Source: Candidatus Hydrogenedentota bacterium (lineage in GTDB: Bacteria; Hydrogenedentota; Hydrogenedentia; Hydrogenedentales; CAILVY01). From it: a DNA stretch of 64,000 nt. Location of the stretch: assembly GCA_029565395.1 (NCBI GenBank), contig JAKQOG010000048.1, forward strand, positions 206 through 64,205, given 5' to 3'. Under the pieces are notes generated by a model, which worked only from the letters and a program-made list of their open reading frames with translations, made no database searches and was not told the DNA's origin. Positions 1 through 31,482 of the stretch are shown piece after piece. A program made the translations under genes and the position numbers. Positions within the stretch are counted from its first letter, which is position 1. Every line of letters begins with the position of its first letter.

Positions 1-26
1 AAGACGGCTTTTGTCCAGGCCCGTAA
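1..26 (+). CDS. 3' end of an upstream giant surface-protein paralog (window-truncated)
   Basis: The frame starting at nt 3 reads DGFCPGP followed by TAA at 24-26. This is the same Cys-Pro-Gly tail that ends the giant ORFs at 3684, 7457, 15382, 23844(-) and 28669(-). Confidence 0.45.
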
Positions 27-103: not shown

Positions 104-132
104 TTGACGAATCCTTCTGCGGATCGCATAAT
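104..132 (+). promoter_or_regulatory. sigma70-like promoter upstream of giant ORF 1
   Basis: TTGACG at 104-109, a 17-nt spacer, then CATAAT at 127-132. It lies ~115 nt upstream of the ATG at 247 in an AT-rich stretch. Confidence 0.35.
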
Positions 133-246
133 GGGGCATGTGCAGAACAGGATGGGTATCGATGCAGAGCAAGATATTTTTCCTTTTTTTATGACTAAGC
201 AGACGGGAGACAGAATAGCCAGAGTAACCACACTGGGAGAGGTGTC

Positions 247-3684: not shown

Positions 3685-3710
3685 TCGCAAAAGAAACAGT
3701 ATACACCCGC

Positions 3711-3745
3711 GCGCGGCTAGCAAAAGAGGCTTGCCGCGCTTTTTC
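3711..3745 (+). terminator. Rho-independent terminator after giant ORF 1
   Basis: Stem GCGCGGC (3711-3717), loop, stem GCCGCGC (3733-3739), then TTTTT. Confidence 0.55.
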
Positions 3746-3791
3746 TATGATTGCTTCTGTGTTTCTTTTATTATTGCTCTTTATTTTTGCT

Positions 3792-3819
3792 TTGCTTGTA
3801 TACATGCATAGTGTATACT
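3792..3819 (+). promoter_or_regulatory. Candidate sigma70 promoter for giant ORF 2, overlapped by a GTATAC-ATGCAT-GTATAC palindromic array
   Basis: TTGCTT at 3792-3797, a 16-nt spacer, TATACT at 3814-3819. The spacer and -10 contain GTATAC ATGCAT AGT GTATAC (3798-3818). Confidence 0.3.
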
Positions 3820-3881
3820 TATGATTAAGTATAGGTGTGAAAAGAAACGTAGAGGGAACCCAACCTGAAGGAGGGAGCATC

Positions 3882-6800: not shown

Positions 6801-7457
6801 GTGCCTGGAGTAAATGGTCCGGCCGTCTTTGATCTGGGAATGCCAACCAGCCCCATAGAAGTGACGATGACATTGGCGGAATACACCTTGTTCTCTACTG
6901 ATCATTATGTAAATGTTCATAGTCTCATGTATCCGGCCGGAGAAATCCGAGGCGATATTCTCTGTCTTCCGGCCGAAGGCGAAGGCGCGGAGGAAGGTGA
7001 AGGTGCAGTGGAAGGCGAAGGCGCGGAGGAAGGCGAAGGCGCGGAGGAAGGTGAAGGTGCAGTGGAAGGCGAGGGTGCAGTGGAAGGCGAGGGTGCAGTG
7101 GAAGGCGAAGGCGCGGAGGAAGGCGAAGGCGCGGAGGAAGGCGAAGGTGCAGTGGAAGGCGAAGATGGATTCCTGACGGCGGATCAGGATCAAGACAATG
7201 CGATCAGCCTTTCCGAACTGCTCCGCGTTATCCAGTTTTTCAACTCCAATGGATTCCATTGCCAGGCCGGCACCGAAGATGGCTATGCCCCCGGTCCTGG
7301 CGATACGAGCTGTGCGCCCTACGACAGCGACTATAACCCAATCGATTGGCAGATAAGCCTTTCGGAATTGCTCCGGGTGATCCAGTTCTTCAATTCCGGC
7401 GGATACCACTACTGTCCCGGCGATGGCACGGAAGACGGGTATTGCCCCGGCCTATAA
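3882..7457 (+). CDS. Giant secreted repeat protein 2 (~1191 aa): signal peptide, 4 tandem ~170-aa WWG/FYEDNAG repeats, CHRD domain, EG-repeat linker, C-terminal dockerin/EF-hand-like Cys module
   Basis: The start is moved to the ATG at 3882, which has a strong GGAGGGAG RBS; the ORF track starts at 3837. The N-terminus MLYIRRTGHFPHQSTLIARVLLGIALIPILGG is signal-like. A CHRD-like segment reads LDGSQEAPPIGSAATGMATF...AAHIHSGVPGVNGPAVFDL...VNVHSLMYPAGEIRGDI. The C-terminus closely matches that of ORF 1 and ends ...GTEDGYCPGL. Confidence 0.85.
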   Translation: MLYIRRTGHFPHQSTLIARVLLGIALIPILGGQAPAQINALALKDDARTKVTLCTVTINFDDVSAPTLFMNATHLTDAYSQMYGVTFYGPDGDNGGAILDSSTWASVTGESTPNFLAFDTLGDLSDGGVAIGPETIEFRSPVDGVSVNVATGTGGHATLEARDPYGTVLDSQTVSLGFAMQTVTIMSPGIKSLVASFDDSTFLMDDLCIYGDPNGESCADDSFFSQKPMSPWESWNGFPSNVGGNSLLYENFSGLTEPIQRIRWWGFGVAPGFFNCTPTGSSFEIGLYYDDGGAPGAQCYSETVTAAMYETGRIFAGVDNFTEYRFEADLANPSYFSNGWIMIKGLGDFSTCGFYWLLSPEGDNVSSLSTDEGATFSPQTMNFSICLSPGPGYRQECGTGSAFSQRPFVPNSVSEFGNYFFSSEALGYTAYENFSGLSWPAKHITWWGIDYSTSYSPCSRTMGDFTISVYNDNAGAPGSLALEETLTPVRMDTGRQWFDGTNYYPEYRYEAELTGQIDLADGWISIFGSNEDGTCGFAWAVSPVGDDLIYQAMNGETPASKPGFDLSICLDTYTGPPQYCMDGSQFNQKPYGPLDPGVNAWYSGDETGYIVYDNFSSHWPINSLQWWGAASGPACTSFQITFYEDNAGQPGIVTYQENVVATQEPTTRLFFGGPEYRFFATLSSSVALASGWISIAGINGAGCGFGWICSPNGDDISFSQTPPGSGPFVNLNVDLALCLGADTGPAETCSPYALFGQPSMDPTALGVNALFSDEILTYAAYENFSGITDSITDVRWWGVHFNYAPCTRVTDTYQITFYEDNAGQPGAVVEQAVITPDRTLTGRIFYFSADYPEYLCHVRLSTPVSLATGWISIVGVGDASCGFAWMCSSVGDSFCLQYPIAGGSPLTGYSDLSLCLSHEEELCQVVLDGSQEAPPIGSAATGMATFAHVGPDAVQLTVVHDVADPTAAHIHSGVPGVNGPAVFDLGMPTSPIEVTMTLAEYTLFSTDHYVNVHSLMYPAGEIRGDILCLPAEGEGAEEGEGAVEGEGAEEGEGAEEGEGAVEGEGAVEGEGAVEGEGAEEGEGAEEGEGAVEGEDGFLTADQDQDNAISLSELLRVIQFFNSNGFHCQAGTEDGYAPGPGDTSCAPYDSDYNPIDWQISLSELLRVIQFFNSGGYHYCPGDGTEDGYCPGL
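6975..7165 (+). repeat. Perfect tandem 18/36-bp DNA repeats encoding an (EGEGA[EV])n acidic linker inside giant ORF 2
   Basis: Units gaaggcgaaggcgcggag and gaaggtgaaggtgcagtg are repeated about 10 times. They translate to EGEGAEEGEGAVEGEGA... Confidence 0.9.
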
Positions 7458-7723: not shown

Positions 7724-10700
7724 ATGCGCAAGCAGCTCTGTATCGCGGCGATTATCGGAGGGTGGATTGTTTTTTTCGTATATAACCCCAATGCATCCGC
7801 GGGGTCCAATCCGCCTGTGTATGTAAGCCATAACAACGCCTCCGGCAATGAAGATGGTGCAAGTTGGGCCACAGCGTTCACCACGATCCAGCCGGCGTTG
7901 GATAATGCCGCAGCGGCAGGCGGCGGCGAGGTATGGGTGGCCAAGGGAAGCTATGGTGAAATCCGGGACAATACCGGCGCGCTGGGTTCGCTGGTTCTGT
8001 GGAGTGATGTGGGTGTGTTTGGCGGATTCGATGGGACGGAAGCAACTATTGAAGAACGCGATCCGAATACCAACCTCACCATCATTGATGGTTCCGCATC
8101 GCGCTTGGAAGGCCAGGAACTGGCCCCGGCCTATCATGTAGTCCGCGGGGAATACCTGAGCGATGTTGTGTTGGATGGTTTCATTATTGGGGGTGGAATG
8201 AATCCCTATCAGACGGTTGCCGATCCCGGTGGCGGGGGAATCTATCTATCAGGGGCGGATGCGACTGTGGTGCTAGAGCATTTGACGCTGAATTTTAACA
8301 GCGCTAATTTAGGTGGAGCCATTTATTTGAACAATGCTTCTCCAATAATACGCAATTGCAGGATTGTGGGGAATGGCGCGTTTGATGGGGGTGGATTGTA
8401 TCTGGTTAATTCTTCGCCCCGTATAGAAAATGTACTGGCCATGAATAATCTGGCCCCGCCGCTGTTTGATAATTCAGGACTTGGTGGAGATGTATATGCT
8501 GATGCTGAATCGTCGCCCCTTATGGTAAATGTGACCCTGGCAGGATCTATAGCGAAGGAAGGTGCGATCTATAGCGCAATGCGGGACAATACCGGGCCAG
8601 TTCTGGTGAATGCGGCGATAAGTTACACCAGTGATATGGAACATGATGTTATTCATGAGGATGTGGCGGGCGATATCCAGGCTACCTATACCCTCGCCCA
8701 GAAGCAGTTGCCGGGAGAGGGGAACCAATCCGGACGCGAGTTGTTCCGAATAAGCGATTATTCCGTTTTTACGGACGATCCGGTCTACGACACAGCCACC
8801 GGCCATACTACTTTTTTTGATCGATCCAAACATTTCGCGCCGAATTCTTTGGTGGGTACGCTGTTGCGGGTGGATACGTATGGAATTCCTTGGTATTACG
8901 TCTACACCTTTGTCATTTTGGAAAACACGGAAACAAGCATCACCGTGTTTAGGGATACGGATATGGCCATCACGGCGGGGACGCATTACGCCCTGCTCGA
9001 TGGCAGCATGGAGAAGATTTCGCCCACGGTGGACACGGGCGCGTCCAACGGAACTCCTTCACACGATTATCTCGGTCAAGCGCGGGGGTATGATGGCGAC
9101 GGTTTGGGGCATGTTACCGGGGATGGGTCGGACTATGACTTGGGCTTCTTAGAATACACCGGACAGGTGTGGGGCGTGGCGCCAATTGCGGATCAAAAAC
9201 TCGAAACGGCCGTGTTGCACGTGTTGCCCAGCGTGGAACCGCCCATTCATACCGATGAGTTTCTGACAGTGACGGAATTAGACGCTTCCTCCCAAAACAT
9301 CACCAATATTTGGGGAATCGAGTACGGCGTAAATCTGGAAACATTGAATCTTAGCAATAATGCCATTTCGCGGCTGGGTGCACTTGCGGGAGCGCACAAA
9401 TTACATTGGCTCGATTTGCACCATAATCAAATCACGGAAATTAGTGCGCTGCTAGCGAACACCGGACTGGGTGGCGATGATTTCCTCGACCTGCGTGGCA
9501 ATCCGCTAACGGAAGAGACTGTGTGCGCGGATCTTCCTGTGCTCCAGGCACGGTTTAACGATCCGCGTAATCTCCTCTATGACCAGTGGTGTGGGCCACA
9601 GGCGCGGCTGACTATGACGGTAATAGGTATTGGCACGGTTAGCCCGGAACCTGGCATTACGGTATATCATCCCGCCGAATATGCACACCTCTCCGCCACT
9701 CCGATTGCGGGAAGTGGATATGCCTTTGATCACTGGGAAGGCAGTGTTTCCTCGGACAGCCCGGCGGTTGATCTGATTATGTATTCGGATAAGAATATTG
9801 CGGCGGTGTTTGTAAATCAAGGCGTGGAAACGCATACCCTCACCCTGCTAAAAGTGGGAGACGGCCAGGGTGATCTATCGCCGGGCGAAGGCGTATTCAC
9901 TTATGTCGAAGGACACTCCGTGGATATTAATGCCGTACCTGTTTCCGGCGATGTCTTTGGCGGATGGAGCGGCGATTTTGTCAGCATGAACACCAGCGGA
10001 ACGATCGTAATGGATGCCGACAAGGTAATCACCGCAACGTTTTTGCACACCTATGTAACACTCGATATAGCGATCACGGGCAATGGCTCCACCAATCCCG
10101 CCCCCGGCACGTATTATTATGCGCCTGGCGCTCAAGCCACGCTTGAGGCCTTGGTTACCGACCCAGTGTGGCATTTTGATCATTGGGAAGGCGGCGTGGA
10201 CACCCCCACAAACCTGCACACCACGATCACCCTCACCCAATCGGCCTCTATAACGGCCGTGTTTGTTCAGTATGAACGCGTGCTGGAAATCCGCGCTTAC
10301 GGTAATGGAACCACTATCCCCGCGCCCGGCCTGCATGGATATAATCCCGGGGATGCCGTGCAAATCCAAGCCATTCCTGGCGGAGGCGCTGCTTTCTCCG
10401 GATGGATGGGGGATCTGCAAGGTCAGGAGACTCCCGCCTCTGTTACCATGGAGGCAGACCGGTTAGTACTCGCCTTCTTTACTAATACCGACACCTCGTC
10501 TTTGTTCCATTCTGTTGATACTAATCATGACTGGCATATTTCCTACTCAGAAATGTCCAGGATTTTCCAGTTCTTCAATATGGGAGGAGATTACCATTGT
10601 GAAGCCGGTACTGAAGATGGATATTTTCCCGGTATTGGCAGCCATGATTGTGCCCCGCACGATGCCGATTATGATCCTCAAGACTGGCGTATTTCCTTGT

Positions 10701-13700
10701 CGGAACTGCTGCGGATGCTGCAATTCTTTTATGCCCCCGACAGCGCTTACCATGTGAATACCAATTCCCCCGACGGTTTTGCGTCTGGACCTCCGGCAAC
10801 CCCAAAAGTCAGCAGAGAAATCTTGTCTCCTGCATGCCAGCCCGGACAAACCGTAGATGTTCGTGTAACCCTCGATTGGTCAGAACGGCCCGTTCCTCCT
10901 GTATCCGCTATCGAAATACACGAAGTTATCCCTGATGGATACACATTTGTTCAAATACTCAATGCTCCTTCCGGGTACTTTATACAAGCACCGGCGATGG
11001 GCAGTTCCGGGGCCATCACGATCAACTGGTATTCCGCGGCGGCACCTGAGGCGCCAAACCTTCCTGTAAATCTTGATTACCGGCTGCAAGCGCCGCCGGA
11101 TCAGATTGGTATCGTGCATCTGCATGGCAGCAGTACATTTGCGATCGATGATTTCAATGTAACCTCGCAGGACACGGACTCTTTTACGAGTGCCTTGCAC
11201 GTGGATCAGCGGAATACCTCCGGAGTGGAAAACGGACTATGCTGGGAAACGGCATTCACCACGATTCAGCCTGCCATTGATCGGGCAACAAATTTCGGCG
11301 GCGGAGATATATGGGTGGCCAAGGGGACGTATAGTGAAGTCCGCGGCAATACAGCCTCTCTTGGTTCGCTAGTGCTTCTGAGCGGGGTAAACCTCTACGG
11401 TGGTTTCTCTGGCGTGGAAACCAGGTTGGACGAACGGGATAGCGAGAAAAATCTTACGATAATAGACGGACACGCCTCCAGGCTCTCCGGGTCAACTGCA
11501 TACCCCGCCTATCACGGGGTGTTTGGGGAAAACCTGACCAACGCGACATTGGACGGATTTGTGATCGCTGGAGGAACAGGGGGTGATTCAGGAACAAATA
11601 CCTATGGCGGGGGCATTTATCTGGCCGCGTCAGATAGTACGGTCTTGTTGAATTATCTAACCATTTGCAATAACATCGCGCCTTATGGCGGGGGCATATG
11701 CGTGGATGGCGTGTCTCCCCGTATTCAAAATTGCCGGATTATCAATAATACGGGTAGCTCTTCTGGCGGGGGAATATTCATTAAAACGGGTGAACCCACC
11801 TTCGAGAATCTCTTGCTGCTCAATAACAGAGGCGGTAATGCCGGGGCGGTAGATATTTACGCCAACGATTTCCCAACCTTTCACAATGTCACCATCGCCG
11901 ACAACTGGTCCTCCGTTGCTACCGTGTACGATTCGGGAGGAAGCACAGGACGTCCATCACTGGTGAATGCCGTGTGGGATCTAAACCACAATTCATCTGC
12001 TTCCAGCAATGTTGACGTAAATGGAAGTGTCGGCGTGCAGTATTCTCTGGCTCCGCGTGTCATCAGCGGTGATGAGAACCTTACCGGGCATGCCCTGTTT
12101 CGCGTGTTGAGTCATTCCGTCTTTACAGCCACTCCATCGTTTGATACAGAGACATACCGCACTACATTCTTCGACGACACCCAATCATTCATTCCCGGCG
12201 CGTTGGCAGGGGGTATTGTCCAAACATACGACAGAAAGACTACCGAGCATGGCAATTACTTCGTCATCTTGGACAACACGGAAACCGCCTTCTCCGTATT
12301 TGGAGATCAAACAGGATACGGATGGACTGGCGATTGGTATTGTTTCCTTGATGGGAGCATGGAGAAGAACTCTCCCGCAGTTGATACCGGAAGTTCTTGG
12401 GTGGGCATGCCCGCAACAGATTACCTCGGCCAGCCGCGCGGATATGACGGCGATGGGCTGGGCTGGGTTGACTTTGGGCTTCGAGACTTTGACATGGGCT
12501 TTCTGGAATACACCGGCCAGCCTTGGGGCGAGGCCTTCTTCCCGGATCAGCAATTGACTTCGGCCGTTTTCAACGCATTGCCGGGCGTTGAGCACACGGA
12601 TGAGTTGCTGGCCCTGACAACACTGAATGCACCTTCCCAAGGTATTGCCGATTTGTCAGGCATCGAACATTGCATGAATCTTCAAACTCTGGATCTCAGC
12701 AACAATCCCATCAGCGACATAGAAATGCTGTCCGCGCTGACCTCCATCGCGTATCTGGATCTTCATGACAACCGGGTCACAACAATAGACGCCCTGCTTG
12801 CCAATACGGGCATCGGCGGCGATGACGTGGTGGACCTTCGCGGCAATCCTTTAACGCAGGATGCGGTCTGCAACGGCATTCCAGCCCTTCAGGCGCGTTT
12901 CAATAACCCGGACAACGTACTCTACGATCAATGGTGCGGACCGCAGGCGCGGCTTACCCTCCAGATCGTCGGTGTAGGTTCGGTAACCCCGAATGCGGGA
13001 ACCACCGTGTACCATCCTGGGGATCATGTGCGTGTGTATGCCGAGCCCATTGATGGCAGCGGATATGCATTTAAGGAATGGAGAGGGAGCTTTTTTACCA
13101 GCAATCATGTTCTCGACTTTGCGATAACCTCGGACATAACCCTCACCGCCTATTTTGTGAATTCCGGGTATCAATTTCACATCCTCCATATAGAGCGCGC
13201 AGGAAACGGCGAAGGGACCATTCTGCCAGGCGAGGGTTCTTTCACGTATATCGCCGGCCGCAACGCCCCCATCAGCGCCACCCCTCAAAATGGCAGCGGC
13301 TTTGGCGGGTGGACTGGCGATCTGAACAGCTTGCGTTTAAACGAGAATGTGGCTATGAACGCCGACAAGGCAATTACCGCAACGTTCATGCAAGGAGGCA
13401 TACCGCTCACGCTAAGTGTCTCCGGACGCGGCGAGATTAATCTCCCCACGGGAACGTTCTATTACGCCCCAGGCATTACTATTCCGCTTGTTGCGCATGA
13501 AACAGATACGCTCTGGTACTTTGATCGTTGGGAAGGCGCCATAAATTCTCCCGATCAGCAAATTGAATTCGTGCTGACGGAACCTGCCGCCATAACCGCT
13601 GTTTTCCGGCTCTATGAGCGCAGGCTTCGAATTCTGGCCTATGGCCGCCATGGAACAACGGATCCCTTGCCTGGTTTGCATGGGTACCATCAAGATGAAC

Positions 13701-15382
13701 AGGCTCAGATTTATGCATACCCAGAGTATTTTTTTTCCGGGTGGATGGGGGATCGCCATGGACGCGATAATCCTCTCTACATGGCCATGGATATAGACCA
13801 TCTGGTGATCGCATCCTTCGCCCGTACGAATGGTTTGTATCATTCAGCGGATGTGAACCATGACTGGTACATTGATTTAGAAGAACTTATGCGCGTGATT
13901 CAGTTGTTTAATTCCGGCGGGTATCATTGCCAGGAAGGGACCGAAGACGGATATGCTCCGGGTCCAGGGGACGTGGGTTGCGGGCCACACGACGCTGATG
14001 AGAATTGGGACGGGATAATAGGGCTGTCTGAAATGTTGAGAGTGGTTCAGTTTTATAATTCCGAGGGTTATCATATCGCGTTCGGCACCGAAGACGGTTT
14101 TGCCCCCGCCTTTTTGGGCGATGCCGGTCTGCTTGTCATCAGACGCGAAGCCGATCCACCGGTCTATGTTCCCGGACAGGGGGTAGATATCCACCTGTCG
14201 ATCAGTCCAGCCAATGGGCGCATCTATGACATGTTTGCGATTCAAATCAGGGAAGATCTTCCTCTGGGATGGAGTTATGTCGAATCCTCGTCCACGCCGG
14301 AAGGATTTTTCAGCACTATGCTGGCGCCAGGCGCCACGGGAAGCATTGATTTTGGCTGGTATTCAATCGATAATGCCACAATGCCTGACTTGCCGGTTGA
14401 ACTCACCTACCGGTTGCAGGTTCCCATGGATCAGACCGGCAGGATGACTATTTCAGGTTCCTGTATATCGGTATTCGATAACGACCATGTGTATACCTTG
14501 GGCATAGACCCAATCTATTTGGACCCGGCTGCCGAAGGAGAAGGCACTATCGAAGGAGAAGGGGTTATCGAGGGCATGCCCTTTGAAGGTTCCCCGGAAG
14601 AAGGGGAAGGTCTGATTGAAGGCGAAGGCGTTGCCGAAGGTGAAGGCGAAGGCGGCGCTGAAGGTGAAGGGGAGGAAGGCGAAGATGTCGTCGAAGGCGA
14701 AGGCTCTATCGAGGGCGAAGGCGAATTGCCGGTTTCCGTGCATAGCGCCGACAGCAATGGCGATGGCATGATCAGTCTGAGCGAATTTCTACGGGTACTG
14801 CAGTTCTATAATTCCGGCGGATATCGTTGTCAGCCGGGCACCGAGGATGGCTACGCGTCGCACCTAGGCGATACATCCTGTGTGCCTCACAGTTCCGATT
14901 ACCACCCGCAGGATTGGCAGATTGATCTGTCCGAACTGCTCCGGATGGTGCAGCTCTATAACGCCGGCGCTTATCATGCCTGCACAGATTCCGAAGACGG
15001 ATTCTGTCCGGGACCTGTAGAAACCGAAGGCGCCTGCGAAGGCTCGATCGAAGGTTCCACTGCTGAAGGCGAAGAAGGCGAGGGTGAATTTGCCGCCCAG
15101 ACGGCCGATCAGGATGGCGATGGCGTAATCAGCCTCTCCGAAGTGCTGCGGATGATCCAGTTTTTCAATGCTGGCGGGTTCCATTGTGAATCGGGTACTG
15201 AAGACGGATATGCCGCGGGGCCGGGGGATACTGATTGCGCATTGCATACCAGCGACTACCACCCGCAAGACTGGCGCATCAGCCTTTCCGAACTCCTCCG
15301 TACGTTCCAGTTTTACAATGCCGGTTGGTATCGCTATTGCCCCGGCGAGGGCACTGAAGACGGCTATTGTCCGGGAATATAG
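7724..15382 (+). CDS. Giant secreted protein 3 (2552 aa): a ~1150-aa super-unit duplicated in tandem (parallel beta-helix, LRR, 4 InlB-B-like repeats, dockerin-like module, Ig-like domain), then EG linker and two more dockerin-like modules
   Basis: RBS GAGGAG. The signal peptide is MRKQLCIAAIIGGWIVFFVYNPNASA. Beta-helix heads GASWATAFTTIQPALDNAAAAGGGEVWVAKGSY (aa ~45) and GLCWETAFTTIQPAIDRATNFGGGDIWVAKGTY (aa ~1170) mark the two units. LRR motifs read LETLNLSNNAISRLG..LHWLDLHHNQITEI. The InlB-B-like repeats have the form PGxTVYHPGxxVxLxAxPxxGxxFxxWxG. Dockerin-like modules lie near aa 930, 2040, 2340 and at the C-terminus, which ends GTEDGYCPGI. Confidence 0.85.
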   Translation: MRKQLCIAAIIGGWIVFFVYNPNASAGSNPPVYVSHNNASGNEDGASWATAFTTIQPALDNAAAAGGGEVWVAKGSYGEIRDNTGALGSLVLWSDVGVFGGFDGTEATIEERDPNTNLTIIDGSASRLEGQELAPAYHVVRGEYLSDVVLDGFIIGGGMNPYQTVADPGGGGIYLSGADATVVLEHLTLNFNSANLGGAIYLNNASPIIRNCRIVGNGAFDGGGLYLVNSSPRIENVLAMNNLAPPLFDNSGLGGDVYADAESSPLMVNVTLAGSIAKEGAIYSAMRDNTGPVLVNAAISYTSDMEHDVIHEDVAGDIQATYTLAQKQLPGEGNQSGRELFRISDYSVFTDDPVYDTATGHTTFFDRSKHFAPNSLVGTLLRVDTYGIPWYYVYTFVILENTETSITVFRDTDMAITAGTHYALLDGSMEKISPTVDTGASNGTPSHDYLGQARGYDGDGLGHVTGDGSDYDLGFLEYTGQVWGVAPIADQKLETAVLHVLPSVEPPIHTDEFLTVTELDASSQNITNIWGIEYGVNLETLNLSNNAISRLGALAGAHKLHWLDLHHNQITEISALLANTGLGGDDFLDLRGNPLTEETVCADLPVLQARFNDPRNLLYDQWCGPQARLTMTVIGIGTVSPEPGITVYHPAEYAHLSATPIAGSGYAFDHWEGSVSSDSPAVDLIMYSDKNIAAVFVNQGVETHTLTLLKVGDGQGDLSPGEGVFTYVEGHSVDINAVPVSGDVFGGWSGDFVSMNTSGTIVMDADKVITATFLHTYVTLDIAITGNGSTNPAPGTYYYAPGAQATLEALVTDPVWHFDHWEGGVDTPTNLHTTITLTQSASITAVFVQYERVLEIRAYGNGTTIPAPGLHGYNPGDAVQIQAIPGGGAAFSGWMGDLQGQETPASVTMEADRLVLAFFTNTDTSSLFHSVDTNHDWHISYSEMSRIFQFFNMGGDYHCEAGTEDGYFPGIGSHDCAPHDADYDPQDWRISLSELLRMLQFFYAPDSAYHVNTNSPDGFASGPPATPKVSREILSPACQPGQTVDVRVTLDWSERPVPPVSAIEIHEVIPDGYTFVQILNAPSGYFIQAPAMGSSGAITINWYSAAAPEAPNLPVNLDYRLQAPPDQIGIVHLHGSSTFAIDDFNVTSQDTDSFTSALHVDQRNTSGVENGLCWETAFTTIQPAIDRATNFGGGDIWVAKGTYSEVRGNTASLGSLVLLSGVNLYGGFSGVETRLDERDSEKNLTIIDGHASRLSGSTAYPAYHGVFGENLTNATLDGFVIAGGTGGDSGTNTYGGGIYLAASDSTVLLNYLTICNNIAPYGGGICVDGVSPRIQNCRIINNTGSSSGGGIFIKTGEPTFENLLLLNNRGGNAGAVDIYANDFPTFHNVTIADNWSSVATVYDSGGSTGRPSLVNAVWDLNHNSSASSNVDVNGSVGVQYSLAPRVISGDENLTGHALFRVLSHSVFTATPSFDTETYRTTFFDDTQSFIPGALAGGIVQTYDRKTTEHGNYFVILDNTETAFSVFGDQTGYGWTGDWYCFLDGSMEKNSPAVDTGSSWVGMPATDYLGQPRGYDGDGLGWVDFGLRDFDMGFLEYTGQPWGEAFFPDQQLTSAVFNALPGVEHTDELLALTTLNAPSQGIADLSGIEHCMNLQTLDLSNNPISDIEMLSALTSIAYLDLHDNRVTTIDALLANTGIGGDDVVDLRGNPLTQDAVCNGIPALQARFNNPDNVLYDQWCGPQARLTLQIVGVGSVTPNAGTTVYHPGDHVRVYAEPIDGSGYAFKEWRGSFFTSNHVLDFAITSDITLTAYFVNSGYQFHILHIERAGNGEGTILPGEGSFTYIAGRNAPISATPQNGSGFGGWTGDLNSLRLNENVAMNADKAITATFMQGGIPLTLSVSGRGEINLPTGTFYYAPGITIPLVAHETDTLWYFDRWEGAINSPDQQIEFVLTEPAAITAVFRLYERRLRILAYGRHGTTDPLPGLHGYHQDEQAQIYAYPEYFFSGWMGDRHGRDNPLYMAMDIDHLVIASFARTNGLYHSADVNHDWYIDLEELMRVIQLFNSGGYHCQEGTEDGYAPGPGDVGCGPHDADENWDGIIGLSEMLRVVQFYNSEGYHIAFGTEDGFAPAFLGDAGLLVIRREADPPVYVPGQGVDIHLSISPANGRIYDMFAIQIREDLPLGWSYVESSSTPEGFFSTMLAPGATGSIDFGWYSIDNATMPDLPVELTYRLQVPMDQTGRMTISGSCISVFDNDHVYTLGIDPIYLDPAAEGEGTIEGEGVIEGMPFEGSPEEGEGLIEGEGVAEGEGEGGAEGEGEEGEDVVEGEGSIEGEGELPVSVHSADSNGDGMISLSEFLRVLQFYNSGGYRCQPGTEDGYASHLGDTSCVPHSSDYHPQDWQIDLSELLRMVQLYNAGAYHACTDSEDGFCPGPVETEGACEGSIEGSTAEGEEGEGEFAAQTADQDGDGVISLSEVLRMIQFFNAGGFHCESGTEDGYAAGPGDTDCALHTSDYHPQDWRISLSELLRTFQFYNAGWYRYCPGEGTEDGYCPGI

Positions 15383-23843: not shown

Positions 23844-26800
23844 TCAAAGCCCCGGGCAGAATCCGTCTTCGGTGCCTTCGCCGGGGCAGTAGTGATACCC
23901 GCCGGAATTGAAGAACTGGATCACGCGCAGCAATTCGGACAAGCTGATGTGCCAGTCTTGGGCATTGTAATCGCTATCATATGGCGCACAACTTGTATCG
24001 CCCGGACCGGGCGCGTAGCCGTCTTCCGTGCCCGCTTCACAATGGAATCCGTCTGAATTGAAGAATTGGATTACACGGAGCAGTTCCGAAAGGTTGATAA
24101 AACCATCCTGGTCTTGATCGGGCGTCAGATATCCGTCTTCGCCTTCTCCTTCCTCGCCACCTTCTTCTCCCCCTTCGCCTTCAGCAATACCCTCTTCTCC
24201 TCCTTCACCCTCTGGGGCGCCTTCGCCTTCTTCCACGCCTTCGGCCTGACCCTCCTCCGGCGAACCTTCGGAGGGCACGCCTTCAGTTTCTCCTTCTTCC
24301 ACGGCCCCTTCTCCTTCCTCTCCGCCTGGAACAGGGTATGGCGCACTGAAGACGGATGTGTTGCCGTCACTGGCCGTAGCCGTGGCGGTGATGTTCATTC
24401 CGGCATAGGGTGTTATGTCCACATCTAAATGGAAATTTCCGGAGCCATCCGACGAAGCCGCGCCGAGAAAAATGCGGCCTTCATCCTCATCATCCGCGAA
24501 TGCTTCAATCGTGGCCAATGCAATGCTTGTGCCGTCGATGGAACCCAATGCAGTAATGACCGGGGCCGGAACATTGTTATTGGCGCCTGGGAGCAATTCT
24601 ATGCCCAAGCCGCCATTTGAATAGATGGAGTTGCCCGAAATACGAACATACAAAACAGTTTCCTCGAGATACACGCCTGCGGCATAATTAAAAGCAATCG
24701 TATTGCCTTCTCCGGGGGTGGTTCCACCGATTGTATTGTCCTCGGCATGCCAACCCGCTTGCACACCCCAACTCTGCGGATTCCCGGAGGGCGCGCCGGT
24801 TCCCAGGGCATTCGGTCCAATCCAATTGCCCTGTACCTTATTCCCTGTTACATTCGCTCCCATTAGCCGGACACCACAACTCCCGTTGCCGGAGATTAGG
24901 TTCCGCCACCAGGAAAGTCCGCCGCCGATGAGATTGTTGGTGGCTTCTTCAACAATCGACACTCCTGCAAGCTCGTTGGCGATCGCCATCATGCCACTGG
25001 CATCCGTGCCGATATAATTGCCTTGCACGGCGCAATCATGCCCATCCACTCCGGAGATCCGAATGCCGTAAAAGCACCCGGAGATAATATTGCGGTAGCC
25101 TATGTTTTCCCCGCCGATCTGGGTTTGCGGCGCCATTACGTCAATCCCCGTGGCATACTGCACGGCCAAGGCGGACGCTCCATCTTTGTCCAAGCCAATA
25201 TAATTCCCGTAAATCATGTTGCCCATGCCGGCGGCGCCATCGATCAGAATTTCACCTCCGCCGGCATTGCCTGCAATGATATTGCCGCTTGTCTCCGATT
25301 CCCCGCCGATCACGTTACCCGGAGAACCATTAATCCAGACGCCATAATACCCATTGCCCATCGCCGCCATGCCCGTGGCGTCCACCCCAATGTAGTTTCC
25401 TAAAATTTCCGTGGCGGTGGCGGAGGAACCAACATGGACCCCCGCTGAGCTGTTGCCGGAAATAATATTGCCACTGAGTCCGTCTCCCCCGCCGATGATA
25501 GTGCCTGAACCATCGGCCACATATATGCCCACGGCGTTTGGCATGCTGGAGGTTCCATCGGTGCCGAGCGTGCATTCCGCGACCGTGTTATTGTTGCCGC
25601 TGATGTTCACACCCGCATAGGGGAAATTCACAATCCCAAGGCCACGCACTTCATTTCCGTCCGAGAGCAGCACAAGACCGTTGTCCGAACCGGAGAGGCC
25701 CGACCCATCTAGAACTATTTGGCCGGCCCCATTAATAACCGTAGGGGCTGAGCTGTCATTCAGCGCCGGGAGCGCCGAACTGAGCGTTATCGTGACGGTT
25801 TTCGACAGATCGAAGACGATTGTGTTTTCGCCGGTCATGGCATTAGCCTGCTCTATGGCCGCTCGAAGCGTATGCGGGCCGCTGTCGCCGGAGTCCGTCA
25901 CGGTGATTGTGGCATCAAAAAAGATGGCCGCGGGCGCGCTGAAGGCGGACGTGCAACCGGTGGTGGTGTCCGTGGCCAGGGCGGTGACATTCAGTCCGTT
26001 ATAGGGCAATAAATCCACATCCACATGAAAATCGCCGGTGTCTTCGGCTATGGCCGTCCCGATAAACAAGCGCCCTTCGTCTGCTTCATCAACGAAGACA
26101 TCCACCAGCGCATAGGGGGGCGCGGTTCCATCCACCGAACCGAGCGTGGTGATAACCGGCGCGGCGATATCGCCGTTGGTTCCGGGATCAAGCACAATGC
26201 CCTCTTCCGTATTGTCATGTATGGAATTGCGGAGAATGCTGATCCCGGTGCTTCCATCGCGAACCCATACGCCTTTGCTTCCATTGAACGCAATGATGTT
26301 GGCGGCGCCGTCTTCCGCGCCGCCGATAACATTCTGACTTGCGTGGTCGGTCAAATACACGCCTATGGAACCATTGGGCAACGGATTACTTCCCGAAACA
26401 TCGCACCCGATTTTGTTCCCCTTTACCACATTGTTGGCCGTATCCGTGGTGAAGATGATAATTCCAAAATTACTGTTGCCGGAAATCAGATTTCCCGCAC
26501 CTGCGGCAGTGCCGCCAATCATGCACATTTGGGCGCCTGATTCCACCGCCACCCCTGACCGGTTTGGAACCGATAGCATGCCGCTGATGTCCGTGCCGAT
26601 ATAATTCCCTTGAAGGAAATTGCTGGAGGAAACAAGATCAATGCCTTCTTCCGAATTGCCTGATATCAGATTCCCATGCCCCGCCACCCCGTCGCCAATG
26701 TGATTGCCGCTGGACCCTGAGTCCACCACGATCCCGTTTTGCCCGTTGGCTAGCGAGGCTGTCCCTTCCCGGTTTGTGCCGATGCGGTTTCCGAAAACGC

Positions 26801-28493
26801 TGTTACCGCTGCTGTTGCGGATTAAGATGCCTTCCACGGCATTCCCCGAAATCAGGTTGCCCTCCGTCTCGAACGCCCCTCCAAGGGTATTGCTGCCGGA
26901 TTCTTCCACCATAATTCCATGGCTCGAATTCAAAATCGCGGAGACTCCCGTCATATCCGTCCCGATGGAATTCCCCTGAATCACCGCGCTCATGTCTCCC
27001 CCCGCTCCATACAGATAAATACCTTGATTGGTATTTCCTGAAATAAGATTCCCGTCGTTTTCTCCCGTGCCGCCGATGATAGAGGCTTGCGCATTGTCAA
27101 GGTAAATACCGGCTCCGCCGTTTGGAATAGCAGTGGTCCCGTCAGGATTGGTTCCGATGAGACACCCCCGCACAGTATTGCCCGTCGAGGCGATGTTCTC
27201 TATCCAAACGCCGTTGCCCGTGTTGCCGGAGATGATGTTGCGCAACACTGTCCCATCCACCGCCACCTCCAGAACATTGTTGGAGCCGTTATCGATGTGC
27301 ATGCCTGCGCCGCCATTGGGCACATCCGTGGTTCCATCGGCACTGAGACCGATAATGTTGTTGGTGAAAGTATTCGTCTGAGCGCCCCCGTTGATCAGCA
27401 CGCCGTCTTCAGCATTGCCGGAGATAACGTTGCCTTCCACGCTGGCGCCGCTTGACCCGCTCAGCACCAGGCCGCTCATCGCATTTTCCAGGTCGCCCGT
27501 GGCGTCGGCGCAGTTCCCGATGAGATTGCCGGAAATGGCGGCCCCATCGATGCCACCGAGGATAATCCCATGGCCGAGGTTGCCCACAATAATGTTGTCA
27601 CTGATGGAACAAGATCCTTCTTCTACCGAAACTCCATGGCTGCCATTGCCAAGCGGGCTGCTGCCATTCGCGGTTAATCCAATGTAATTGTTCTGAATGG
27701 TTATATTGGTGCTGGCGGCGCCGGATACGCTTATCCCTTCCATTGTATTGCCGGAAATCACGTTCCCCGCCGCGCTGCTGGTTCCGCCTATCCGGACACT
27801 GGGCGCGTCCGCCAGTTGAACACCTGGGCCACCGTTCGGAACTGCGCTCCCTCCTGTAGCGGTGGCGCCGATATAATTACCGTAGATATTGATGGCGCCC
27901 GTACTGGAGGTGACGTATACCCCAGCGTTCGTATTGCCGCTTATGATATTCCGCTCACTTGAAGTACTCCCCCCTAACGTGGCCCGCCCGCCCGTGATGG
28001 AAACACCCCAGCCATTGGCTATCACAAAACGGCCATCATAGCCGATCAGGCAACCGGTCACCACGTTGTATGATCCGCCGATCACAATACCCGACTTCTG
28101 GAATCCGCCGATAATAAGCCCGTTAATAACATTCGTATTGGAACTTAGGATCAAGCCATGACTGTTGCCGGCGGAGGCGCCATTCAAGGTAATTATCCCT
28201 CCTCCATTTATCGTGGTCCCGCCCGAGGAGTCGTCCAACGCCGGAAGTTCGGAAGTGAGATTGATAATGCGATCTCCCTCTGGAAGATTAAACACGATGG
28301 TATCCGCGCCTGCAAGCAAATTGGCAGATCCAATGCATTTGCGCAGGGTTGGGTTGATAACCCCGTCTCCGGAGTCGGTCACGGTAAATGTGGCCGCCTG
28401 CGCCCAACTCCCCACAAACAACAACAGCATTACACCCGCAACAAATTGTTTTCCCCATCCAAGCCCTTTTCGCCCATTAGCCGCTTTGTTCAT
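23844..28493 (-). CDS. Giant secreted protein 4 (~1549 aa): two tandem NosD-like parallel beta-helix (PbH1) arrays, EG linker, C-terminal dockerin/EF-hand-like Cys module
   Basis: The start is moved to the ATG at 28493 (MNKAANGRKGLGWGKQFVAGVMLLLFVGSWAQAA signal peptide, AAAGGA RBS); the ORF track starts at 28622. There are dozens of GxxISGNTxxGI/V repeats. Each half ends with the related segments DGTAPPYALVDVFVDEADEGRLFIG and DGTSIALATIEAFADDEDEGRIFLG. The C-terminus ends GTEDGFCPGL. Confidence 0.85.
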   Translation of the reverse strand: MNKAANGRKGLGWGKQFVAGVMLLLFVGSWAQAATFTVTDSGDGVINPTLRKCIGSANLLAGADTIVFNLPEGDRIINLTSELPALDDSSGGTTINGGGIITLNGASAGNSHGLILSSNTNVINGLIIGGFQKSGIVIGGSYNVVTGCLIGYDGRFVIANGWGVSITGGRATLGGSTSSERNIISGNTNAGVYVTSSTGAINIYGNYIGATATGGSAVPNGGPGVQLADAPSVRIGGTSSAAGNVISGNTMEGISVSGAASTNITIQNNYIGLTANGSSPLGNGSHGVSVEEGSCSISDNIIVGNLGHGIILGGIDGAAISGNLIGNCADATGDLENAMSGLVLSGSSGASVEGNVISGNAEDGVLINGGAQTNTFTNNIIGLSADGTTDVPNGGAGMHIDNGSNNVLEVAVDGTVLRNIISGNTGNGVWIENIASTGNTVRGCLIGTNPDGTTAIPNGGAGIYLDNAQASIIGGTGENDGNLISGNTNQGIYLYGAGGDMSAVIQGNSIGTDMTGVSAILNSSHGIMVEESGSNTLGGAFETEGNLISGNAVEGILIRNSSGNSVFGNRIGTNREGTASLANGQNGIVVDSGSSGNHIGDGVAGHGNLISGNSEEGIDLVSSSNFLQGNYIGTDISGMLSVPNRSGVAVESGAQMCMIGGTAAGAGNLISGNSNFGIIIFTTDTANNVVKGNKIGCDVSGSNPLPNGSIGVYLTDHASQNVIGGAEDGAANIIAFNGSKGVWVRDGSTGISILRNSIHDNTEEGIVLDPGTNGDIAAPVITTLGSVDGTAPPYALVDVFVDEADEGRLFIGTAIAEDTGDFHVDVDLLPYNGLNVTALATDTTTGCTSAFSAPAAIFFDATITVTDSGDSGPHTLRAAIEQANAMTGENTIVFDLSKTVTITLSSALPALNDSSAPTVINGAGQIVLDGSGLSGSDNGLVLLSDGNEVRGLGIVNFPYAGVNISGNNNTVAECTLGTDGTSSMPNAVGIYVADGSGTIIGGGDGLSGNIISGNSSAGVHVGSSATATEILGNYIGVDATGMAAMGNGYYGVWINGSPGNVIGGESETSGNIIAGNAGGGEILIDGAAGMGNMIYGNYIGLDKDGASALAVQYATGIDVMAPQTQIGGENIGYRNIISGCFYGIRISGVDGHDCAVQGNYIGTDASGMMAIANELAGVSIVEEATNNLIGGGLSWWRNLISGNGSCGVRLMGANVTGNKVQGNWIGPNALGTGAPSGNPQSWGVQAGWHAEDNTIGGTTPGEGNTIAFNYAAGVYLEETVLYVRISGNSIYSNGGLGIELLPGANNNVPAPVITALGSIDGTSIALATIEAFADDEDEGRIFLGAASSDGSGNFHLDVDITPYAGMNITATATASDGNTSVFSAPYPVPGGEEGEGAVEEGETEGVPSEGSPEEGQAEGVEEGEGAPEGEGGEEGIAEGEGGEEGGEEGEGEDGYLTPDQDQDGFINLSELLRVIQFFNSDGFHCEAGTEDGYAPGPGDTSCAPYDSDYNAQDWHISLSELLRVIQFFNSGGYHYCPGEGTEDGFCPGL

Positions 28494-28668
28494 GAAATTG
28501 ATCCTTTCGTTCCCACGCATTAACCCTTGGGATACTCCTCTGCGATGTGATTTTTCTTCCCTGCCCGCCAGATAAACCGCCCTTCCGGCGGACAGGCAGT
28601 TATTGAACTCATAATACTCCATCTTTTCCCCAAAGCGAAATATTTTCTTGCGGCAGAAGAGAGTGTTT

Positions 28669-31341
28669 TTAGGAGCCCGGACAGAACTCGTCTTCCGTTC
28701 CTTCTCCTGGACAATAATGATACCCGCCGGAATTGAAGAACTGGATTACGCGCAGCAATTCGGACAAGCTGATGTGCCAGTCTTGAGCATTGTAATCGCT
28801 ATCATATGGCGCACAACTGGTATCGCCCGGACCGGGGGCATACCCGTCTTCCGTGCCCGCTTCACAATGGAATCCGTCTGAATTGAAGAATTGGATTACA
28901 CGGAGCAGTTCAGAAAGACTGATAAGGCCGTCGCCGTTGGAATCCGCGGAGTGAATGCCACCGTAGACTTCGCCTTCGCTTCCGCCTTCGGCGGAACCTT
29001 CCTCCGGTGAACCTTCGGAGGTCATGCCTTCGGGCATGCCTTCAACCTGACCTTCGGTTTCTCCTTCCACCACCACCCCTTCACCTTCCTCCAGCGATCC
29101 CTCCGAAAGCATGCCTTCGGACTCGCCTTCCACCACACCTTCTTCACCACCCTCACCTTCCTCTTGGCCTTCACTTCCGCCTTCGGCGGAGCCTTCGATC
29201 TGACCTTCAGCTTCTCCCTCTTCTGTGCCTTCTTCAACCCCTTCGCCCTCAAGCTGCCCCTCAATTGCACCCTCTAAAGCTCCTTCGGCAAAACCTTCAC
29301 CTTCAGGTTGCCCTTCGACAACTCCCTCGCCATCAGGCGCTCCCTCTATGATTCCCTCAGGTTGCCCTTCCACTATGCCTTCTATATCACCCTCAAGAAG
29401 ACCTTCTTCGCCTTCCTGACTCATAACAGGCGCCATGCAAAGGCTCATGTCGAAATCAGGAATCTCCTTGTGCCCTCCGTTGACCGGCATATACATGGTT
29501 CCATCGCCAATGGGAGAACCAATCCAATGGAATCGGCAGGAAACATCGATAACACCGAATATTGAAATCCATCCCTCTGTTATAGACAACGGCGGCTCAA
29601 GGACGGCTTCATACCGTATCACGGGAAAGCTGGAAAAAAACTGGCCTGTTTCCATGCGCATCGGCTCTATCTGATAGGCCTGCAGGATCTCTCCGGGCGC
29701 ACCGCTGTCATTTTCATAAAAATCGATGCGGAACGTGTCAGGATCCCGGTCACAAGGCACCGCTTGCATTAGAAATTCATCATACTGAGTGTTAATGCCC
29801 CACCACCGGATTCTTCCAATGGGCGCTGTTAAGCCGGAAAAGGACTCATGGGGCCGATGATAATCATCCCCATTACTCGGAATTTCAAATGCAAAGCGGG
29901 GACTGGCCGGAGGCTGGGAAAAAACAGCGTCGTCTGAGCATTCGTGGTTGTCATTCGGGGCAATCGTCAGAACGGCCTCCCGAGTAGCAAGCGTAGTGCA
30001 GGCATTGGATACGGTGCAGCGGTAGCGGCCTGCGTCGCTTGGGAACACTTGTGCGAGGGAGAGCGCCGGGCTTGTTTCCGCGGATAGAATGGAAAATCCC
30101 ATCCCTCGATCCACTTCCCATAGGTACTGTGCAGGGATATCAGGATCGAGGGCAACGTCAAACTCGACCAGGTCGCCGATAACGGCCTCTTTATCCGCGG
30201 GTTCTGACGCTAGCGTGAAAGGATAGGCGACAGACAGGGTCACAGGACCGGAAAATGTGGTGAAACAACCATTGCCCGCGTAGGTTCGGATCTGGAGCCC
30301 GTCGTGTGTCTCCGGCTGCACGTTCGTGAACGTATAGGTGCGGTTATCCCCGCTATCAATAGTATCCCAAAGTTCGGTAACGGGGTTATAGACTTGCCAA
30401 AAGACCGCTCCGTTCGTCACGTCATATTCGACTGTAAAGGTGACATCTTCTCCGGCGCATGTACTTTCATCGATTAAGGGGATAATCACCTGCGGCGCCA
30501 CCTGAACACCAAAAAAGACTATATCGCTGGTATCGCTCCCGTATGCATTGTGTACAATCGCCCGGTAGTAACCGGAATCGCTTGCCTTGACTGGATCCAA
30601 CACCAGCGGCGTTCCGGACTGACCCGTCACATCATGCCAGCTTGTGGGATCGCCCGGATCTTCAGAATGCTCCCAATACACCGATAAGGGCGCCGCACCC
30701 GCAATGCCCAACGGTACTTCCAGCCGCGCGCCATCGCACACATCCACCACCGTTATTTCAGGTTGCACCGTGATATGCGGGGCGCCAATCGTCTGCGGAT
30801 CGGGCTGCAATGGGGTATAGCCGGTATCATCGGCTACATTATAGGACAGCACGGTGGTTTCATGCCTGATGGTGCAGTTGAAATAATCGAAAGCCAACTG
30901 GTCGGAAACGGACGGATCGATGACATCCCACCGGAACGTGGCAAGGTGATAGTTGCCAGCGGGAAACGTGTGGTATGCCCCCCCCTGATGGAGAATCAAC
31001 ATGGCGGTGTCATTTCCGCCTAAATCCAACTGCACCAGATCATTATAATTTCCAAAGCCGCTTATCGCATAGTAGGCATCCATGGCCTCAAGATAGTGAT
31101 ACGGCGCTGGATTTAGCGCAGTTTCATCCGCCTGCACGGTAATGACACTGGTTCCCACACTCCACCCTGACGCACTGACTCTCGCCCAAAGCTCCGCACG
31201 GTACACACCCTCCTCCATCCAGACATTCCGGAGGGAGAAGGTGACCCGGCTTTCCGCGCCGGCAGGAAGGACGGGTAGAAGACTTAACAAAAAAATGATG
31301 CAAATGATACAGAAATAGTGTTTGCACTGTTTCGCAACCAT
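28669..31341 (-). CDS. Giant secreted protein 5 (~890 aa): Ig-like domains, one WWG/FYENDSG-type domain, long EG-rich linker, C-terminal dockerin/EF-hand-like Cys module
   Basis: The start is chosen at the ATG at 31341, which has a GGAGGG RBS 7 nt upstream; the alternative ATG at 31356 has no RBS. The signal peptide is MVAKQCKHYFCIICIIFLLSLLPVLPAGA. The C-terminal ~90 aa are nearly identical to ORF 4 and end GTEDEFCPGS. Confidence 0.85.
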   Translation of the reverse strand: MVAKQCKHYFCIICIIFLLSLLPVLPAGAESRVTFSLRNVWMEEGVYRAELWARVSASGWSVGTSVITVQADETALNPAPYHYLEAMDAYYAISGFGNYNDLVQLDLGGNDTAMLILHQGGAYHTFPAGNYHLATFRWDVIDPSVSDQLAFDYFNCTIRHETTVLSYNVADDTGYTPLQPDPQTIGAPHITVQPEITVVDVCDGARLEVPLGIAGAAPLSVYWEHSEDPGDPTSWHDVTGQSGTPLVLDPVKASDSGYYRAIVHNAYGSDTSDIVFFGVQVAPQVIIPLIDESTCAGEDVTFTVEYDVTNGAVFWQVYNPVTELWDTIDSGDNRTYTFTNVQPETHDGLQIRTYAGNGCFTTFSGPVTLSVAYPFTLASEPADKEAVIGDLVEFDVALDPDIPAQYLWEVDRGMGFSILSAETSPALSLAQVFPSDAGRYRCTVSNACTTLATREAVLTIAPNDNHECSDDAVFSQPPASPRFAFEIPSNGDDYHRPHESFSGLTAPIGRIRWWGINTQYDEFLMQAVPCDRDPDTFRIDFYENDSGAPGEILQAYQIEPMRMETGQFFSSFPVIRYEAVLEPPLSITEGWISIFGVIDVSCRFHWIGSPIGDGTMYMPVNGGHKEIPDFDMSLCMAPVMSQEGEEGLLEGDIEGIVEGQPEGIIEGAPDGEGVVEGQPEGEGFAEGALEGAIEGQLEGEGVEEGTEEGEAEGQIEGSAEGGSEGQEEGEGGEEGVVEGESEGMLSEGSLEEGEGVVVEGETEGQVEGMPEGMTSEGSPEEGSAEGGSEGEVYGGIHSADSNGDGLISLSELLRVIQFFNSDGFHCEAGTEDGYAPGPGDTSCAPYDSDYNAQDWHISLSELLRVIQFFNSGGYHYCPGEGTEDEFCPGS

Positions 31342-31482
31342 GACCAAACCCTCCATGAGTACCTGTAAATGATATTACTGCGAATTTATATTGAAATCAA
31401 GGGCTTTTTCAGAGAGAAATTGAATGTGCCCTGTGTAGTGGAGTAGTTTGGATGCCTTGACAACAATAGAAGGAGCGGAGCC

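Follow-up and report, generated by a model that had tools for sequence, protein, structure and literature searches.

The DNA analysed here (the window) is a 64,000-nt stretch of Candidatus Hydrogenedentota bacterium (NCBI GenBank assembly GCA_029565395.1, contig JAKQOG010000048.1, positions 206 to 64,205 of the forward strand), a member of an uncultured phylum that is common in anaerobic digesters. It holds two clusters of long genes, one on each strand, whose products share a tail: a module of ~91 residues that lies at the C terminus of five genes of the window (open reading frames ORF1 to ORF5) and of two genes just upstream of it, with three extra copies within ORF3. Searched by tblastn with one tail, the window yields eight copies of this 91-codon unit (E 1e-29 to 1e-62), a similarity far above the chance level. 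The plus-strand cluster comprises at least five tandem tail-bearing genes once the upstream contigs are counted: gene0, which runs out of the window at its left edge, is preceded by another such gene (P0002, tail Tm1), whose tail lies at the contig edge in three assemblies. We rejected P0002 as the ORF2 orthologue of another genome; it is a paralogue from the same genome, located immediately before the window. The features are listed below in window coordinates, except for gene0, with the tails T0 to T5 numbered after their genes.

L081 493-4227 (tail 3949-4221), by contig match: gene0, 1244 aa, leaving the window at its left edge
1..26, plus strand, from the overlap with L081/L082: T0 end, the last codons and stop of the gene0 tail
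247..3684, plus strand: ORF1, 1145 aa, with signal peptide, four ~210-aa repeats, the ~170-aa shared domain and the tail, and no Glu/Gly linker
3403..3684, plus strand: tail T1 (module and stop), with the tract homogenised with T2 at 3445-3675
3837..7457, plus strand: ORF2, 1206 aa, with signal peptide, four ~170-aa shared domains, a CHRD domain, an (EGEGA[EV])n linker and the tail
6975..7164, plus strand: 18-nt tandem repeat, 10.6 copies with 87% matches, encoding the Glu/Gly linker of ORF2
7179..7457, plus strand: tail T2, a mosaic by the max-chi2 test
7724..15382, plus strand: ORF3, 2552 aa, with choice-of-anchor Q, leucine-rich repeat (LRR) and InlB B-repeat domains and four module copies
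10514..10789, plus strand, by tblastn: ORF3 internal module a, followed by a ~135-aa beta-sandwich domain
13847..14110, plus strand, by tblastn: ORF3 internal module b, followed by the second beta-sandwich copy
14747..15013, plus strand, by tblastn: ORF3 module c, the first of the C-terminal tandem pair
15104..15382, plus strand, by tblastn: ORF3 module d, the C-terminal tail T3d, divergent from the other tails (68-73% nt identity)
23844..28622, minus strand: ORF4, 1592 aa, with signal peptide, two right-handed beta-helix regions, a Glu/Gly linker and the tail
23844..24122, minus strand: tail T4, the interval flagged by the first-pass annotation, with the tract homogenised with T5 at 23850-24086 and a junction and loop 1 of the 'DG[FY]LT.DQDQD' type, as in T2, T0 and Tm1
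28669..31356, minus strand: ORF5, 895 aa, with signal peptide, immunoglobulin (Ig) domains, the ~170-aa shared domain, a long Glu/Gly linker and the tail
28669..28947, minus strand: tail T5, with the tract homogenised with T4 at 28675-28911 and a junction of the 'GIHSAD' type, as in T1

All five ORFs of the window begin with a signal-peptide-like N terminus, judged by eye (a basic stretch, then a hydrophobic run). Their passenger regions, which the first-pass annotation called unrelated, are so for ORF4, which has no similarity to ORF1, ORF2 or ORF5 beyond the Glu/Gly linker and the tail; the description does not hold for those three, which have in common a ~170-aa Cys-containing domain (residues 882-1042 of ORF1, four copies in ORF2, residues 473-641 of ORF5; 28-36% identical, and 28-43% with gene0). 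This domain usually lies just upstream of the linker and tail, carries the motifs YENFSG, WWG, FYED.aG.PG and GWISI, and matches Pfam DUF7901 weakly, below threshold (E 0.003 for ORF2, 0.03 for ORF1). Gene0 is made up of a beta-helix, the shared domain (residues 853-1030) and the tail, and ORF3 of a duplicated ~1100-aa unit (choice-of-anchor Q/beta-helix-like, LRR, InlB B-repeats, module, unnamed beta-sandwich) that ends in the tandem module pair. The N-terminal 880 residues of ORF1 (window 247-2900), which hold its four ~210-aa repeats, have no Pfam or NCBIfam match, and homologues 39-46% identical occur at loci L073 and L028. A search for a contig record encoding P0003, a possible relative of ORF4, found none.

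The module is composed of two loop-helix-hairpin halves and has four conserved Cys residues. Each half-repeat has the form acidic loop-LSELLRVIQFFNSGGYHC-x-GTEDGY-PG-x-C and runs from a Ca2+-binding-type loop through an amphipathic helix (LSELLRVIQFFN) into a beta-hairpin with a Cys bridge (GYHC..GTEDGY.PG..C), the disulfides in the hairpins being predicted, with C28-C45 and C79-C89 as the likely pairs. In a 39-member alignment, D2, E13, R16, Q19, C28, C45, D51, R66 and D86 are invariant. The AlphaFold model (predicted local distance difference test score, pLDDT, 93.8) places helices at residues 11-22 and 61-73 and strands at 26-28/36-38 and 76-78/88-90; the modelled segment begins at loop 1 and contains no entering helix, with the linker end outside it. 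Four Cys are present in 70 of 96 copies from related genomes, and loop 1, a 12-residue D-x-[DN]-x-D-[GN]-x-I-x-x-x-E segment, fits a regular expression for the PROSITE-type EF-hand loop pattern in 79 of them. By homology, the module probably binds Ca2+ through this loop. It ends in ...GTEDGYCPG[x1-3], with no hydrophobic stretch and no basic tail.

An exhaustive profile search at E ≤ 1e-3 returned 3076 clusters (50% identity), of which 1486 reach E ≤ 1e-30; nearly all matches end at the last residues of the protein. Each Hydrogenedentes genome carries dozens of copies; at least 501 are present in a collection with one genome per species, and a single metagenome-assembled genome (MAG) accounts for 29 of the best 80 loci. 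Where a source is named, it is Candidatus Hydrogenedentes/Hydrogenedentota or one Kiritimatiellae bin. MAGs titled 'uncultured Nitrospirales' (CAYYRW01, CAYXPO01, CAZLII01, CAYMLC01; loci L001-L078) also hold dozens of modules, together with ORF2 orthologues that are 65-66% identical; this label is probably wrong, and these MAGs are more likely Hydrogenedentota. Many family members in the databases are 'partial' proteins at contig edges, the match at many loci lying <300 nt from the contig end, and short-read assemblies of these genomes appear to be broken by the repeated tails and low-complexity linkers.

Of the 96 copies from related-genome loci, 88 reach to no more than 12 codons from the stop and about seven are N-terminal or internal. 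At four loci the module directly follows the signal peptide and is itself followed by the Glu/Gly linker (L048 and L057, then with LRR; L076, with a sulfatase; L049, with a region that has no Pfam match); the module is thus one that works at either end of a protein. The 40 residues upstream of it have a median content of 62% Glu+Gly+Asp (96 copies). Shuffling of passengers onto a common module, which the first-pass annotation had raised as a possibility, is evident across the family, on evolutionary timescales. One related protein (L072 4156-8073) combines a Pfam Cohesin domain (PF00963, E 1e-8, above threshold) with an internal module and a beta-helix region, which is a scaffoldin-like arrangement. 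The unnamed ~135-aa domain that follows each internal module of ORF3 (10790-11203 and 14111-14536; copies 32-35% identical) also occurs in L070. It has no credible Pfam match (one below-threshold match was to an adenovirus family), and a two-sequence AlphaFold model (pLDDT 72) renders it as an all-beta sandwich, for which Foldseek lists the CLIPPER adhesin domain (E 1e-4), YcnI and many cohesin modules (E 1e-3 to 5e-3, template-modelling (TM) score 0.45-0.57), beta-sandwich matches of this kind being unspecific. Profile comparison of this domain with the L072 cohesin revealed no relation, and database searches with either returned nothing; as a receptor or partner of the module, the modelled sandwich may be a weak lead at most.

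We next turn to the DNA of the tails. The first-pass annotation reported repeats at the 3′ ends of the minus-strand ORF4 and ORF5, and they are indeed present there (23844-24122 and 28669-28947); its figure of ~95% over ~230 nt is slightly generous for a repeat that is real, since T4 and T5 are 93.5% identical over their best 230 nt (91% over 257 nt; 92.4% over 250 nt, with 19 mismatches; 96.5% over the best 200 nt). T1 and T2 are 92% (91.9%) identical over 248 nt and 93.0% over the best 230 nt, and the tails of one pair are 75-78% identical to those of the other (T1/T2 vs T4/T5). The 46-mer that it quoted for ORF1/ORF2 is exact at 3445 and 7221; the runs given as 46 and ~56 nt are in fact 47 and 63 nt long, and the longest run of T4/T5 is 68 nt. 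At ~92% identity, identical runs of 47-68 nt are unremarkable alone, and significance comes from permutation and breakpoint tests.

To separate selection on the protein from exchange of DNA, we used Nei-Gojobori counts over the 91 codons, which give the proportions of synonymous (pS) and nonsynonymous (pN) differences; the core was defined as tail nt 43-273, which excludes the variable first Ca2+ loop. Between the clusters, over all 91 codons, the tails are 82-87% identical in amino acid sequence, with pN of 0.07-0.11 and pS of 0.71-0.88. Because the synonymous sites are saturated, we attribute this similarity to purifying selection on the protein; conservation between the clusters is purely protein-level. 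Neighbouring genes behave differently from other pairs: core pS is 0.30 for T1-T2, 0.33 for T4-T5, 0.39 for T0-T2 and 0.41 for T0-T1, vs 0.62-0.87 for every other pair among the seven tails. Each pair has ~49 synonymous sites, so that with a standard error of ~0.07 the gap spans several standard errors. Among 466 within-genome pairs from three related genomes, core pS has a minimum of 0.46 and a median of 0.74, and the nine same-locus tail pairs of those genomes are no more alike than unlinked ones (median 0.72 vs 0.75).

The neighbouring tails also contain breakpoints. From the linker end through loop 1 to about nt 138, T2 matches T0 at 31 of 35 informative sites, while beyond this point it matches T1 at 14 of 17 (max-chi2 25.4, permutation p < 0.0005); over the whole core (nt 43-273), its closest relative is T1. 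T4 shows a breakpoint between T5 and either T2 or Tm1 (max-chi2 p < 0.0005), with the 'DG[FY]LT.DQDQD' junction of T2/T0/Tm1 but the core of T5, and T5 itself has the 'GIHSAD' junction, as does T1. The ancestry of tail and passenger is discordant in gene0, whose passenger is related to those of ORF4 (38-41%) and ORF5 (43%), while its tail is 95% identical in amino acid sequence to that of the neighbouring ORF2 and groups with ORF1/ORF2. In L001 and L008, the orthologues of ORF2 retain a linker and junction of the ORF2 type and, at the positions where T1 and T2 both show Q, DG and Y, carry E, EA and F; their tails stand at pS 0.81-0.82 from those of their own upstream neighbours, which are not ORF1 orthologues, in genomes that are distant. 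These data indicate that adjacent genes of this lineage exchanged their tails locally, by old non-allelic gene conversion or an equivalent process, after its split from the L001/L008 lineage. They further indicate that the events are old (synonymous divergence, dS, ~0.4-0.6) and that homogenization is not ongoing; the wording 'near-identical' was therefore too strong for converted tracts that have since diverged to this extent. The tracts end at the points where the protein ceases to be conserved and the DNA, as a result, ceases to be similar.

Gene conversion is well known among paralogous genes for surface proteins, and the tails share with it short tracts in a conserved segment, donors and recipients that are close neighbours, mosaic breakpoints and discordant trees of gene end and body. 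They differ from known families of this kind in that the events are old and none is seen in the related genomes, and from programmed variation systems in that all tail copies lie in complete, expressed-type genes, with no sign of silent cassettes. The first-pass annotation had offered gene conversion or concerted evolution of the tail. Local conversion between neighbours is borne out by low core pS, breakpoints and discordance; ongoing concerted evolution is not, nor is homogenization between the clusters. As a general explanation, gene conversion fails on the adjacent tails of other genomes, which are not homogenized, and on a between-cluster conservation that is protein-level only, with saturated pS.

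Three other accounts of the similarity have to be weighed against conversion. Purifying selection alone, with no exchange between genes, describes the relation between the clusters exactly (the amino acid identity, pN and pS given above) and agrees with the related genomes, where adjacent tails are no more alike than distant ones; it is refuted for the four neighbour pairs, whose core pS of 0.30-0.41 lies below not only the other pairs but also the 0.46 minimum of the 466, and it leaves the significant mosaic breakpoints unexplained. A version in which selection acts on a nucleotide-level RNA element finds no matching Rfam family, the scan of the window having returned no RNA family at all. 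We consider selection alone an improbable account of the whole. The tails could instead be relics of tandem duplication, in which whole genes were copied and the similar tails kept while passengers were replaced or diverged. The genes are indeed tandem and co-oriented, and ORF1, ORF2, ORF5 and gene0 have the ~170-aa domain in common; however, this domain is 28-43% identical vs 88-95% amino acid identity for the tails, the passengers of ORF4 and ORF5 have no detectable similarity, and gene0 has its passenger relatives in ORF4/ORF5 and its tail relatives in ORF1/ORF2. Moreover, the groupings by junction type and by core conflict within 300 nt, and the ORF2 orthologues in two genomes keep the ancestral junction without T1-like core states. 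We therefore give duplication little credence.

An assembly artefact, with the ~250-nt repeats collapsed or chimerically joined in the MAG, is very improbable. Such repeats do break assemblies, as the many partial family members at contig ends illustrate; yet independent assemblies are 100% identical through all tails and junctions, and the longest identical runs reach only 68 nt. Two JGI metagenome contigs (3300009780, 3300010355) match the window at 100% through both T4 and T5, with ORF5 exact; the left end of the window is 100% identical in JGI 3300009780, ENA ERZ795059 and the NCBI MAG GCA_035393045.1 (annotated Candidatus Hydrogenedentes bacterium), and window 1-6166 equals L081/L082 4202-10367 at 100%. 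No structural variants occur among the independent assemblies that overlap parts of the window, none of whose contigs covers both clusters including the inversion junction. The direct repeats T0-T1-T2-T3 and T5-T4 could delete the genes between them, and recombination between the oppositely oriented clusters could invert 16-25 kb; because the identical runs are ≤68 nt and identity is ~92%, such events are expected to be rare. The repeat encoding the ORF2 linker is likely prone to length variation through slippage.

To place the module among known domains, we compared it with EF-hands, dockerins and sorting tags. The family profile aligns to calmodulin EF loops (E 1.5e-5); among the 39 aligned members, Pfam EF-hand_6 matches 31 and Dockerin_1 matches 8 at E ≤ 1 (best 4.4e-6), and ORF3 as a whole passes the Pfam EF-hand threshold, its copies summing. 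Scanned against Pfam and NCBIfam, neither the full proteins nor the isolated tails matched a model specific to the module, and a PDB sequence search with a single tail returned nothing. We found no description of the module in the literature on Hydrogenedentes with dockerin, cohesin or EF-hand, coverage of which was incomplete. Its likeness to EF-hands (calmodulin-like; PF00036, PF13405, PF13499) lies in the canonical loop 1, with Asp at position 1 and Glu at position 12; it differs from them in being extracytoplasmic, in its predicted disulfides, in a non-canonical second loop and in serving as a terminal tag rather than a sensor.

The likeness to dockerins (type I, PF00404; type II, X-dockerin) extends further. 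The dockerin 'F-hand' is a duplicated loop plus exiting helix, without an entering helix, and dockerins comprise two such Ca2+-loop-plus-helix segments in ~70-90 aa. By sequence duplication and in the AlphaFold model, the module likewise has two tandem F-hand segments, though over ~91 aa vs ~70 aa and with added hairpins. As with dockerins, each genome has it on many different secreted cargo proteins, mostly at the C terminus and preceded by a flexible linker, and one module-bearing relative (L072) also has a Cohesin domain, the sole and indirect hint that the module might bind a cohesin. Unlike dockerins, it has a calmodulin-type Glu at position 12 of loop 1, an extra Cys-bridged beta-hairpin in each half, a repeat period of ~50 aa vs ~22-35, linkers rich in Glu/Gly rather than Pro/Thr, and no significant Pfam or fold match for the copies of the window. 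The candidate phylum Hydrogenedentes is not known to have cellulosomes. We regard the module as a new variant within the EF-hand/dockerin-like class; we do not file it as a dockerin because it fails Pfam Dockerin_1 membership and its fold match is not significant.

The module might alternatively act in secretion or sorting, as a C-terminal signal comparable to the type IX secretion system C-terminal domain (T9SS CTD), PEP-CTERM or LPXTG, and be recognised, then cleaved or attached, by dedicated machinery. Like these tags and the choice-of-anchor proteins, it is one conserved, lineage-specific domain that dozens of exported proteins, unrelated in other respects, carry in each genome, almost always at the very C terminus. 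The 'choice-of-anchor' class, defined by NCBI through co-occurrence with alternative terminal anchors or sorting tags, is represented here by ORF3, which matches NCBIfam 'choice-of-anchor Q' at 29 bits vs a cut-off of 25. On the other hand, ~7% of copies follow the signal peptide or are internal, ORF3 alone having two internal copies and one in tandem; the module has no transmembrane segment, in the sense of a hydrophobic helix, nor a basic tail; its modelled helix-hairpin fold would not be the beta-sandwich of a T9SS CTD; and we identified no NCBIfam sorting-domain match and no sortase- or PorU-like machinery. A sorting signal is thus an unlikely reading of the module. The terms 'passenger' and 'anchor' of the first-pass annotation, if taken in the autotransporter sense, do not apply either: there is no Pfam autotransporter match, and the tail is a helix-hairpin module of 91 aa with two helices, not a beta-barrel translocator of ~250-300 aa.

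Taken together, these properties are best matched by a binding or tether module that is autonomous, extracytoplasmic and independent of position, borne on a flexible acidic stalk; neither a cleaved sorting signal nor an autotransporter barrel accounts for them as well. In each Hydrogenedentes genome the module is borne, on a polyanionic Glu/Gly linker, by dozens of Sec-exported proteins. Its most likely role would be that of a common Ca2+-dependent tether, through which passengers as different as beta-helix, LRR, Ig, CHRD and sulfatase domains would be held by a single partner at the cell surface or on a scaffold. The protein is under strong purifying selection, which keeps the copies 60-90% identical in amino acid sequence while synonymous sites saturate, and neighbouring tails (gene0/ORF1/ORF2; ORF5/ORF4) were homogenized by non-allelic gene conversion, in tracts of ~230-330 nt within the conserved module. 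We hold this explanation as a whole, tether, selection and local conversion, with moderate confidence.

Several observations weigh against it. Loop 2 fits the canonical EF pattern in none of the 96 copies, the tails of the window have no match to Pfam Dockerin_1 even at E ≤ 10, and, when isolated, they reach 13-24 bits against Pfam EF-hand models with cut-offs of 25-30. Foldseek searches of the PDB gave nothing significant, the top matches being the dockerins 5k39_B (E 0.32) and 2vn6_B (TM score 0.50 on the target) in a range of 0.32-0.50. We detected no cohesin in the window: tblastn with the L072 cohesin gave only chance matches there, including a weak one to an N-terminal stretch of ORF5, and a Pfam scan of the ORF5 N terminus and the other unnamed passenger domains returned nothing. 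As for conversion, the number of synonymous sites per pair is small; the closest genomes are distant (ORF2 orthologues at 65-66% amino acid identity and pS 0.68-0.72), too far to date or polarize the events precisely; and an ancient partial duplication of a neighbour's 3′ end at the birth of a gene would give a signal similar to conversion.

A more specific version, which we put forward tentatively and consider rather doubtful, is that the module serves as the 'dockerin' of an undescribed, non-cellulosomal, Ca2+- and disulfide-dependent display system found only in Hydrogenedentota, in which dozens of cargo proteins per cell would be held on Glu/Gly stalks by a cohesin-like or other beta-sandwich receptor and local conversion of the tails would keep neighbours receptor-compatible. 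Such a receptor might be the L072 Cohesin domain, which shares a protein with the module, or the unnamed sandwich domain that comes after each internal module of ORF3.

The module itself is more interesting than the repeat through which it was noticed: it marks the secreted giant proteins of Hydrogenedentota, dozens per genome and in ~3,000 clusters, and is named in neither Pfam nor NCBIfam, nor does it have a relative of solved structure. It is an obvious handle for annotating these proteomes, for searching for the receptor that would hold the proteins at the surface, and for explaining breaks in MAG assemblies. The tails are also a clean, small example of how synonymous sites separate protein-level constraint from DNA exchange, with conversion confined to the sole stretch that selection has kept similar enough to pair.

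Promoter and terminator scans near ORF4 and ORF5 gave only background levels. Two further ORFs, at 33989-35320 (minus strand, 443 aa) and 41086-42627 (plus strand, 513 aa), have no Pfam match at E ≤ 1e-4. The remainder of the window is ordinary chromosome, with topoisomerase I and RtcB and, by appearance, RND-type transporter-like membrane proteins and beta-oxidation-like genes.

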